64,000 nucleotides of DNA from a phage: the NCBI GenBank assembly GCA_014686905.1, contig GCA_014686905.1_4093.1; one strand, 5' to 3'. Position 1 is the first letter of the stretch. Each line of letters opens with the position of its first letter. The notes beneath the pieces were generated by a model that saw nothing but the letters and a program-made list of their open reading frames with translations, did not search any database and was not told the DNA's origin. Below, in pieces: positions 14,261 to 14,929 of this stretch. The translations under genes and the position numbers were made by a program.

Positions 14261-14929
14261 TTAGACTGAATTGTTAGGATAATATCTCCCACGTCCCCAT
14301 ATTATTCGCACAGCACCACCACTACCAGCACCACCATTATATGAACCATCGTATCTACCGCCAATACCATTAGCACCTTGAACAATGATACCAGTACCAC
14401 CACCCGTACCAATGAACGAGGTATTATAGAATGCACCACCACCACCGCCGCCGCCAGCACCATTTTCACCAGTGATTGCATCTCCGTTACCACCTTTACC
14501 AGTGTAGCCACCAGCACCACCACCAATGACTGCACCACCACTTACACCAGCGTTGCCCCCATTACCACCACCATCATTAATAGCGTTAGCAGCTTTCCCA
14601 CCTAGTCCACCAACCCTATATTCACCAGTGAAGCTAACACATAGTTTTTCAGTTCCACGATATAAACCGTTTTCAACTGCTGTAGTAGTGTTGGGATGTG
14701 TAAGAGAAACACTTAAGTACTCACCACTAGTAACCGGAATATTATTACGCCACGATAAGCCGCCACCAGCACCACGTTGACCACCCGGCGAAATAACACA
14801 TACTGATATTTCGGTAACGCCAGCAGGAACTGTAAATTGTGTTGTTCCTATTGTCGTGATTAATTGTTCACCATCTGGCTTATATTCAATTTTATTCCCG
14901 TACTTTACCATTCTTCCAAAAGGTAACAT
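14261..14929 (-). CDS. glycine-rich protein carrying the same N-terminal tag MLPFGRMVKYGN
   Basis: Real start at second ATG after SD; body dominated by GGxGG tracts, not RCC1-like, yet N-terminus and cassette are shared. Confidence 0.65.
   Translation of the reverse strand: MLPFGRMVKYGNKIEYKPDGEQLITTIGTTQFTVPAGVTEISVCVISPGGQRGAGGGLSWRNNIPVTSGEYLSVSLTHPNTTTAVENGLYRGTEKLCVSFTGEYRVGGLGGKAANAINDGGGNGGNAGVSGGAVIGGGAGGYTGKGGNGDAITGENGAGGGGGGGAFYNTSFIGTGGGTGIIVQGANGIGGRYDGSYNGGAGSGGAVRIIWGRGRYYPNNSV

Follow-up and report, generated by a model that had tools for sequence, protein, structure and literature searches.

The array and its glycine-rich member

We analyzed a 64,000-nucleotide (nt) stretch of phage DNA (contig GCA_014686905.1_4093.1; the whole stretch is referred to as the window) and, within it, the glycine-rich (Gly-rich) coding sequence at 14929..14261 on the minus strand, whose 222-amino-acid (aa) product has the first residues MLPFGRMVKYGN, a 12-residue N-terminal sequence (the tag) shared with the other genes of an array. 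The window belongs to Asteriusvirus (~350 kb class): its positions 13000-16300 match the 121Q/PBECO4/phAPEC6 group (36 jumbo coliphage and Salmonella phage genomes), and part of this region is 99.4% identical to phAPEC6. Twelve tagged genes, all on the minus strand, span 6938-21072 (Table 1). A protein-motif scan returned 11 intact tagged open reading frames (ORFs) between 8163 and 21054 that start MLPF[GAVT]RM[VLIM][KN]YGN; with the frameshifted copy at 8090, this agrees with the 12 genes counted in the original prediction, which was made from the sequence alone.

RCC1-like propellers (PF25390/PF00415, phrog_4219) account for 10 of the tagged members and for the frameshifted twelfth, and 14929..14261 alone has an unrelated body. 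That body belongs to phrog_4474, with no Pfam family at E <= 0.01 and no NCBIfam match; once the tag was removed there was no BLASTP link to the RCC1 bodies, RCC1 repeats or blades were not detected, and a profile search of the PDB with the protein gave nothing at E <= 1. PF21722 is carried only by its distant database homologues. Glycine makes up 27.9% of the 222 residues, with 46 Gly in residues 101-205. The original prediction had described an array member with an unrelated Gly-rich body, the same tag and the same upstream cassette, and had placed it correctly: the tag of this gene is identical to those of the other members at 31-36 of 36 nt, and the cassette precedes eight window genes, this one among them. 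A longer ORF reaching to 14947 (MNKGGS...) begins within the promoter/Shine-Dalgarno (SD) region, and 14929 is therefore the likely start codon position.

Structure models, built from alignments of window and database proteins only, predict for residues 20-222 a TNF-like beta-sandwich plus a polyglycine domain arranged as a Gly-rich lattice (predicted local distance difference test, pLDDT, 87.9; predicted template modeling score 0.86). The first strand starts at residue 20; residues 1-19 form a low-confidence tail (pLDDT 50 for residues 1-10 and 67 for residues 11-20), and a helical shaft domain is absent from the model. In the modeled RCC1 paralogue at 14188..13046 (pLDDT 79.7), residues 1-9 fall below 50 and the propeller begins at about residue 22. 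Because the N-termini have low pLDDT and the folds start at residues 20-22, the tag plus a linker of 7-10 residues is predicted to be an appendage of each of the two unrelated bodies, lying outside their folds. In the RCC1 paralogues the linker position is Pro-rich (I/V-A/V-P-x-P). We rejected the tag as the closing (Velcro) strand of the propeller, since the RCC1 and Gly-rich models both place it, at low confidence, outside the fold, and also as a signal peptide or lipoprotein signal, since it has no hydrophobic stretch or Cys. No conserved cleavage motif was seen after the tag in the tagged proteins compared.

The Gly-rich gene is present in 18 of ~37 Asteriusvirus records. It is identical to gene 243 of 121Q at 669/669 nt apart from one 69-nt in-frame deletion, which falls between two direct GTGGTGGTGCTG repeats and removes 23 aa including the family-conserved YGGG segment. 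In the phAPEC6 record (L001, 5992-8018) it is mostly unannotated, with only a 100-aa fragment, gp004, whereas tblastn places it whole at 7325-8056, so that nothing can be read from its not being listed in the phAPEC6 virion proteome. The same fusion of tag and Gly-rich body is found in CBB_144 of Pectobacterium phage CBB (MLPFSPLIVYGNK), which is flanked by nrdD and nrdG and located ~280 kb away from the CBB array, and in two metagenomic homologues, P0003 (MIPFARIVKYGN, 53% identical) and P0004 (MLPFPIISNTN). Since these proteins share it, the fusion is ancient and not a recent cargo swap. A further metagenomic variant, P0002 (on a 26.7-kb contig), starts MNKGG-NKIEYKP at an ATG inside the cassette; its 12 tag codons are deleted and it has a large internal deletion, so that it may represent a copy in decay or an error of assembly.

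Table 1. Coordinates of the tagged genes, of the elements in and around the Gly-rich gene, and of genes with a second N-terminus in other phages
Feature	Location	Strand	Remarks
Tagged RCC1-like gene, 382 aa	19906..21054	-	MLPFVRMIKYGN
Tagged RCC1-like gene, 369 aa	18723..19832	-	
Tagged RCC1-like gene, 382 aa	17503..18651	-	
Tagged RCC1-like gene, 395 aa	16245..17432	-	MLPFTRMVKYGN
Tagged RCC1-like gene, 396 aa	15001..16191	-	MLPFARMMNYGN
Tagged Gly-rich gene, 222 aa	14261..14929	-	
Tagged RCC1-like gene, 380 aa	13046..14188	-	structure modeled
Tagged RCC1-like gene, 391 aa	11800..12975	-	
Tagged RCC1-like gene, 395 aa	10604..11791	-	no upstream cassette; coupled to preceding gene
Tagged RCC1-like gene, 269 aa	9713..10522	-	truncated
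Tagged RCC1-like gene, 389 aa	8163..9332	-	no upstream cassette
Twelfth copy	6938..8090	-	degenerate tag; frameshifted
Upstream cassette of Gly-rich gene	14930..14993	-	
Terminator hairpin	14993-14975	-	GCCAGTAC-AAA-GTACTGGC
T-run	14974-14963	-	
T4-late-like promoter motif	14960-14955	-	TAAATA
TATAAT	14951-14946	-	
Shine-Dalgarno	14941-14934	-	AAAGGAGG
Tag of Gly-rich gene, 12 codons, residues 1-12	14894..14929	-	MLPFGRMVKYGN; pLDDT ~50 in model
Linker of Gly-rich gene, residues 13-19	14873..14893	-	KIEYKPD; low model confidence
Terminator hairpin 3' of Gly-rich gene	14233..14255	-	first element of the next gene's cassette
EspYZU08 gene starting MQELLLIGNKG	L029:1674-2324		
EspYZU08 gene starting MFEMLLGGKAP	L029:5353-6516		
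EspYZU08 gene starting MLEILTIGADA	L029:8366-9103		
PVP-SE1 loci with second N-terminus	L004:6998-7840 and L027:16249-16551		

Conservation and boundary of the tag

The 36-nt tag sequence occurs nine times at <=3 mismatches (0 expected from shuffles), and its consensus in Rak2-like jumbo phages is M-[LI]-P-F-x-R-[MIL]-[LIVM]-x-Y-G-N. Its boundary is abrupt. Identity falls away at codon 12/13, and the 60 nt after the tag of the Gly-rich gene match the other members at 15-20 of 60 positions, which is the random level. The tags are 75-100% identical and the protein bodies 14-38%, or 16-38% among the RCC1 paralogues, with one pair (18651 and 21054) at 69%.

When 29 RCC1 proteins of three phages were aligned, seven columns were invariant, and five of these, M1, P3, F4, R6, and Y10, lie within the tag. 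Among 43 tags from four genomes, P3, F4, R6, Y10, G11, and N12 are near-invariant, positions 2, 7, and 8 are hydrophobic, and positions 5 and 9 tolerate many residues. The third codon positions of the conserved residues vary (CCT/CCA/CCG, TTT/TTC, AGA/AGG, TAC/TAT 25:17, GGG/GGA/GGT). To judge from this pattern, selection acts on the tag at the peptide level.

The upstream cassette and recombination between array genes

The cassette has the general form GCCAGTAC-NNN(N)-GTACTGGC, a T-run, and then TAAATATAGTATAATGAATAAAGGAGG, 4-5 nt before the ATG; the 27-mer TAAATATAGTATAATGAATAAAGGAGG is present in eight copies at <=3 mismatches (0 expected). At 10 junctions the hairpin and its T-run are scored as an intrinsic terminator, and terminator-like sites number 19 against 6.0 expected. 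None of the -35/-10 pairs stands out (82 found, 70.8 expected in shuffles). The TAAATA of the cassette resembles the ATAAATA motif found upstream of CBB structural genes, which the CBB authors likened to the T4 late promoter (PMC5259590), and CBB encodes a gp55-like factor.

Two window genes, 11791 and 9332, keep the tag without the cassette, each directly following the preceding coding sequence. Because these two and most tagged genes of Erwinia phage Hallingskeid lack the cassette, tag and cassette are separable. The original prediction had treated them as one 5' module into which varied cargo is placed; the portability of the tag holds across folds, but the unity of tag and cassette does not.

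Copies of cassette plus tag number 4-16 per genome in 37 Asteriusvirus records. In vB_Ec-M-J (L028), the Gly-rich gene is missing and its two flanking RCC1 genes stand in the opposite order; the homology blocks correspond to window 12939-14263 and 14893-16244, both of which begin and end in tag/cassette. The rearrangement shows cassette and tag at work as recombination joints.

An RNA element over leader and tag was considered and rejected, because the minimum free energy structures differed among six genes (z from -1.4 to +1.9). We also observed that CCUUUU (tag codons 3-4) is complementary to the SD AAAGGAGG, at window 14927-14941 and at equivalent positions in the paralogues; the two pair in some predicted folds, with energies that are not significant.

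The tag in other jumbo phages

Tagged proteins occur in the window, in EJP2, Hallingskeid, CBB, and GAP32, and in IMG/VR jumbo contigs. In Hallingskeid, 10 consecutive genes start MIPF[AST]R[ML]I[QKN][YF]G[NQR] and are mostly translationally coupled, without the cassette. EJP2 has 14 genes with MLPF[VA]R[MI]x[ENTK]Y[GS]N, preceded by a cassette of different sequence, and CBB has seven array genes and at least three scattered ones with MLPF[SPA][RI]..., so that tagged genes are also found far from an array, as is CBB_144. A degenerate DNA scan of IMG/VR returned 17 loci, confined to eight contigs of 348-378 kb. The tag is thus a signature of Rak2-like jumbo phages.

After removal of the first 14 residues, 70 tagged proteins split into separate BLASTP clusters: RCC1 (45), Kelch (8; PF24681, PF13964, and others), phrog_6011 (5; a family annotated "virion structural protein"), LamG-like (4), Gly-rich (3), and five singletons, three of them Laminin_G_3/ConA-like at varying strength and two without a Pfam match. 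The tag heads at least five unrelated kinds of protein. The search of other phages proposed with the original prediction has thus yielded RCC1, Kelch, LamG/ConA-like, phrog_6011, and Gly-rich cargo, and the tag is portable across unrelated bodies.

Seunavirus (Vequintavirinae) phages have a different shared N-terminus, M-x-E-[LMI]-L-[LT]-[IG]-G, on the same three head families (RCC1-like, Gly-rich, and phrog_6011-like), and Gly-rich homologues from ~150-kb phages begin MLELL, MIELL, or MLEML. Cronobacter phage EspYZU08 has an intact trio within 7.5 kb, in which MQELLLIGNKG stands on a phrog_6011-like body, MFEMLLGGKAP on a 387-aa RCC1-like body (PF25390), and MLEILTIGADA on a Gly-rich body. 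In PVP-SE1, a whole-genome scan for this N-terminus found only gp018, a Gly-rich protein starting MFEMMLATS, and the truncated gp179; MFEMLLGGKAP is found there on an RCC1-like fragment whose alignment to the window RCC1 profile starts at the linker (hhalign probability 95%). Protein gp182 of 4MG (L007:3953-4603), annotated "virion structural protein", starts MEEMLLVGGGK. The same head families with a lineage-specific N-terminus would be the pattern expected of an address matched to the particle of each lineage.

Two array members of the window are damaged. The truncated gene at 9713..10522 is followed by out-of-frame C-terminal RCC1 fragments at 9343-9712 (9471..9343, '...YVNGKLYYTGMSPVGTVVGTWTLTEYQLPPI'), and the same 269-aa form is found in 121Q. 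The twelfth copy has a decayed tag (MLPFGRIITSS, with YGN lost and the synonymous codons CTA and CCC); its first frame stops near 7866 and the RCC1 body goes on in another frame (ORF 7834..6938). Its EJP2 orthologue (L003:15955-17121) is intact and keeps the full tag. The tagged array is flanked on the opposite strand by tandem arrays of small ORFs, at 3473-6253 (+) and 21157-25380 (+), of ~104-141 aa and ~60-81 aa. Arrays of genes of about these sizes, some annotated as membrane proteins, lie beside the tagged arrays of phAPEC6, Hallingskeid, EJP2, and CBB.

Tagged proteins in virions

Published mass spectrometry of purified CBB virions (PMC5259590, Table 4 and supplement 6) reports CBB_144 with five peptides and 34% coverage, together with the array proteins CBB_548, 549, 551, 552, and 553. 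Two scattered tagged proteins are also in the raw peptide table, one with eight peptides and 41% coverage and the other with one peptide. In total, 8 of 10 tagged CBB proteins are found in purified virions, compared with 55 of the 554 CBB ORFs (hypergeometric P = 2e-7). The virion-associated proteins of phAPEC6 include six from the RCC1 array (gp003, 005, 006, 007, 009, and 010; PMC7247149, Table 1), and gp007 is annotated there as the truncated 269-aa form.

Three peptides detected in CBB virions are internal to the tag or begin inside it: LLQYGNK (residues 7-13), LFEYANVIIPPNYK (7-20), and YANVIVEYATK (10-20). A fourth, IAPYQILYEMK of CBB_144, results from a tryptic cut directly after tag residue K13. 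The positions reported for the peptides match the sequences when ORFs are numbered from stop to stop. Since tag-internal peptides are detected in virions, the tag is not cleaved off, and it is retained in the mature particle.

Proposed role of the tag and alternative explanations

We consider it highly probable that the tag is a virion-incorporation address that stays on the protein. The first 12 residues would be common to Rak2-like jumbo phages in this role, and a short flexible linker, often Pro-rich, would connect them to a self-contained ligand-binding head: an RCC1 or Kelch propeller, a ConA/LamG-like lectin, or a TNF-like plus polyglycine head such as occurs at tail-fibre tips. Each head would dock non-covalently on one common acceptor outside the particle, with the tag remaining on the mature protein, and a phage might display a repertoire of ~10-16 different binding heads. 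The hair-like appendages on head and tail of 121Q, phAPEC6, and CBB are a candidate docking site only. Each gene may form a late transcription unit, with terminator hairpin, T4-late-like TAAATA promoter, and strong SD; the repeated cassette and tag would provide ~100-140 nt of homology at each gene junction, and recombination at the junctions could reorder, add, and delete heads while keeping the tag DNA homogeneous within a genome. Here we infer direct docking, exterior location, adhesin function, and the identity of the acceptor, and we lean only modestly in favor of the full statement, in which the tag docks exchangeable ligand-binding heads so that they are presented on the particle's exterior. 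The fibre-tip, lectin, and propeller folds, the neutral isoelectric point (pI) with low lysine plus arginine (K+R) content, and tag retention speak for an exterior rather than an interior location, but are not decisive.

Several observations weigh against the docking reading. Two tagged CBB Kelch proteins were not detected in the CBB virion mass spectrometry, and the phAPEC6 RCC1 proteins are thinly covered, by 1-4 peptides (PMC7247149). The first six residues (MLPFxR) are absent from the peptides observed, so that the extreme N-terminus may be trimmed. Mass spectrometry reports presence in virion preparations, not location, and is compatible with an interior position or co-purification. The link of the tag to hairs is weak, because hairs are not reported for GAP32, which nonetheless has tagged virion proteins. 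The Gly-rich copy of the window may be impaired by its 23-aa loss. Finally, the codons TTA, CCT, TTT, AGA, and AAT are uniform in 11/11 window tags, with a joint P of ~1e-17 under the codon usage of the bodies. Synonymous uniformity is far above the codon-usage prediction, so that tag conservation also owes something to a nucleotide-level process, either homogenization by gene conversion or a constraint that acts on the initiation region.

This uniformity, beside a repeated cassette, is also what would be expected if the tag had no role at the protein level and were the coding end of a homogenized expression cassette, kept by gene conversion or by an mRNA/translation constraint. Leader and tag are, if anything, less structured than shuffles in four of six genes, and CCUUUU of codons 3-4 is able to pair with the SD in some folds. 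We nevertheless regard this explanation as very unlikely: the tag is kept without the cassette (11791, 9332, and most Hallingskeid and CBB genes) or with a different one (EJP2), between genera the amino acids hold and the third codon positions change, with tag positions 5 and 9 unconstrained, RNA structure over leader and tag is inconsistent (z again from -1.4 to +1.9), and the tag predicts virion incorporation. Recent whole-gene duplication within the array is practically negligible as the source of the shared start. It fits the pair 18651/21054, 69% identical, and tandem duplication has been proposed in the literature for these phages; the other bodies are only 14-38% identical, the Gly-rich body is unrelated, and tag identity falls to random within one codon. 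Gradual divergence at the tag boundary, which the original prediction had named as the result that would speak for duplication, was not what we found; the drop is abrupt and the bodies are old or unrelated.

The tag might alternatively be a T4-style capsid-targeting sequence (CTS) that binds scaffold or core and packages inner-body, "DNA condensation", or ejected anti-defence proteins. T4 internal proteins share the logic of a conserved N-terminus of ~10 aa on diverse proteins of a hypervariable locus (PMC3012670). The tagged proteins are virion-associated, phAPEC6 has an inner body for which its authors put forward the RCC1 proteins as candidates, and the array differs between near-identical phages, as an arms race would give. 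Whereas the prohead protease of T4 removes the CTS, tag peptides persist in mature virions and no conserved cleavage motif follows the tag, and propellers, lectins, and a fibre-tip-type head of 200-400 aa with neutral pI are a poor fit to DNA-associated or tail-tube-ejected proteins, so we judge this explanation unlikely. The "DNA condensation" role of the array proteins in particular was rejected, because these proteins have a neutral pI and few basic residues. No likelier, in our estimate, is a tag that is recognized only in passing, by an assembly chaperone, an attachment catalyst, or a modifying enzyme that goes on to install the protein, without being the docking element itself. This would fit a shared signal, virion incorporation, and a tag outside the fold, and Pam3-type fibre heads require a dedicated chaperone; against it, none of the genes linked to the arrays at the loci examined is a chaperone candidate, and tag retention is not required. 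A chaperone signal and direct docking nonetheless cannot be separated here, as the same data fit both.

Under the docking reading, large myoviruses might have a natural form of plug-and-display built on lineage-specific N-terminal addresses (MLPFxRMxxYGN for Rak2-like jumbo phages, M-x-E-[LM]-L-x-x-G for Seunavirus), with one socket on the particle open to any protein that has the address, a swap of ~12 codons sufficing to exchange heads between lineages, and a combinatorial adhesin repertoire on each virion. We offer this wider proposal tentatively, with the balance slightly against it. If it is true, the plug-and-display tag alone would be sufficient to load foreign proteins onto virions, and the tag is a candidate for foreign-protein display or host-range re-targeting.

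The multiplicity of RCC1 genes in these phages has already been noted in the literature. We found no description of the shared tag, its other folds, or the virion link in the searchable literature, of which coverage is partial, so that a prior description is possible; the tag is not mentioned in a jumbo-phage comparative review, the phiKp24 structure paper, or the UE-S1 and fEgEco12 genome papers, and a literature search on RCC1 or propeller virion proteins gave nothing relevant. Dozens of genomes annotate these arrays as "regulators of chromosome condensation" or "DNA condensation proteins", whereas the evidence points to tagged virion accessory proteins with binding-type heads. The tag could serve as a simple annotation rule for structural proteins in jumbo phages, and a tag that predicts virion incorporation across at least five folds would give a handle on the acceptor, possibly the hair base of 121Q, phAPEC6, and CBB. 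Cassette-plus-tag junctions would also account for the reshuffling of the array between near-identical phages.

Comparison with known systems

The annotation as RCC1 or "DNA condensation protein" fits in one respect, as the neighbours of the Gly-rich gene are predicted to be genuine RCC1-like seven-bladed propellers. It does not fit in others: nothing found here points to a role on chromatin or DNA, the proteins belong to the virion and have a neutral pI, and the Gly-rich member is not RCC1.

For the cassette, the closest described analogue is the PeSL cassettes of T4-type phages, in which a terminator stem-loop and a promoter lie between accessory genes and recombination shuffles, deletes, and inserts genes (Arbiol et al. 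2010, PMC2839356). Both are repeated units of a stem-loop and a promoter-like element, and breakpoints fall at the window cassettes. The PeSL promoter, however, is a sigma70 early promoter serving accessory genes, whereas that of the window looks T4-late-like (TAAATA) and precedes virion genes, and the window repeat, unlike PeSL, runs 36 nt into the coding sequence.

The model of the Gly-rich body shares the TNF-like sandwich and polyglycine lattice of the glycine-rich receptor-binding domains (Pam3 gp24, S16 gp38, Bxb1 gp33, and the ALK/LTK glycine-rich domain; PF21722). It differs from them in that the protein is not assigned to the family by sequence, lacks a helical shaft, and is 23 aa shorter than the 121Q protein through its deletion. 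The fibre of Pam3 recognizes the host with its TNF-like plus glycine-rich head and is docked to the baseplate by another domain, which is helical and N-terminal (PMC9608196). The predicted Gly-rich fold matches the head of Pam3 gp24, with a 12-residue tag here in place of the helical docking domain.

The CTS of T4 and T-even internal proteins (IPI-III and the polymorphic IP locus) is likewise an N-terminus of ~10-12 aa that sorts unrelated proteins of a hyperplastic locus to the virion (PMC3012670). The two have no sequence resemblance, and the tag is retained, with no conserved protease site following it. The CTS cargo consists of small internal proteins, and the tag cargo of large propellers, lectins, and fibre-tip heads. 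Tailspike and tail-fibre anchors combine a constant N-terminus with an exchangeable C-terminal receptor-binding part and swaps at the junction, as the tagged genes do. They differ in that a fibre anchor is a folded domain or trimeric shaft, whereas the tag is 12 residues plus a linker and is unstructured in the models, and in that the tagged proteins include monomer-type propellers among their heads and number 4-16 paralogues per genome. Both analogies had been drawn in the original prediction. Because the tag, unlike the T4 CTS, is retained in mature virions, the likeness to fibre cassettes is the better fit and that to capsid-targeted internal proteins the poorer one.

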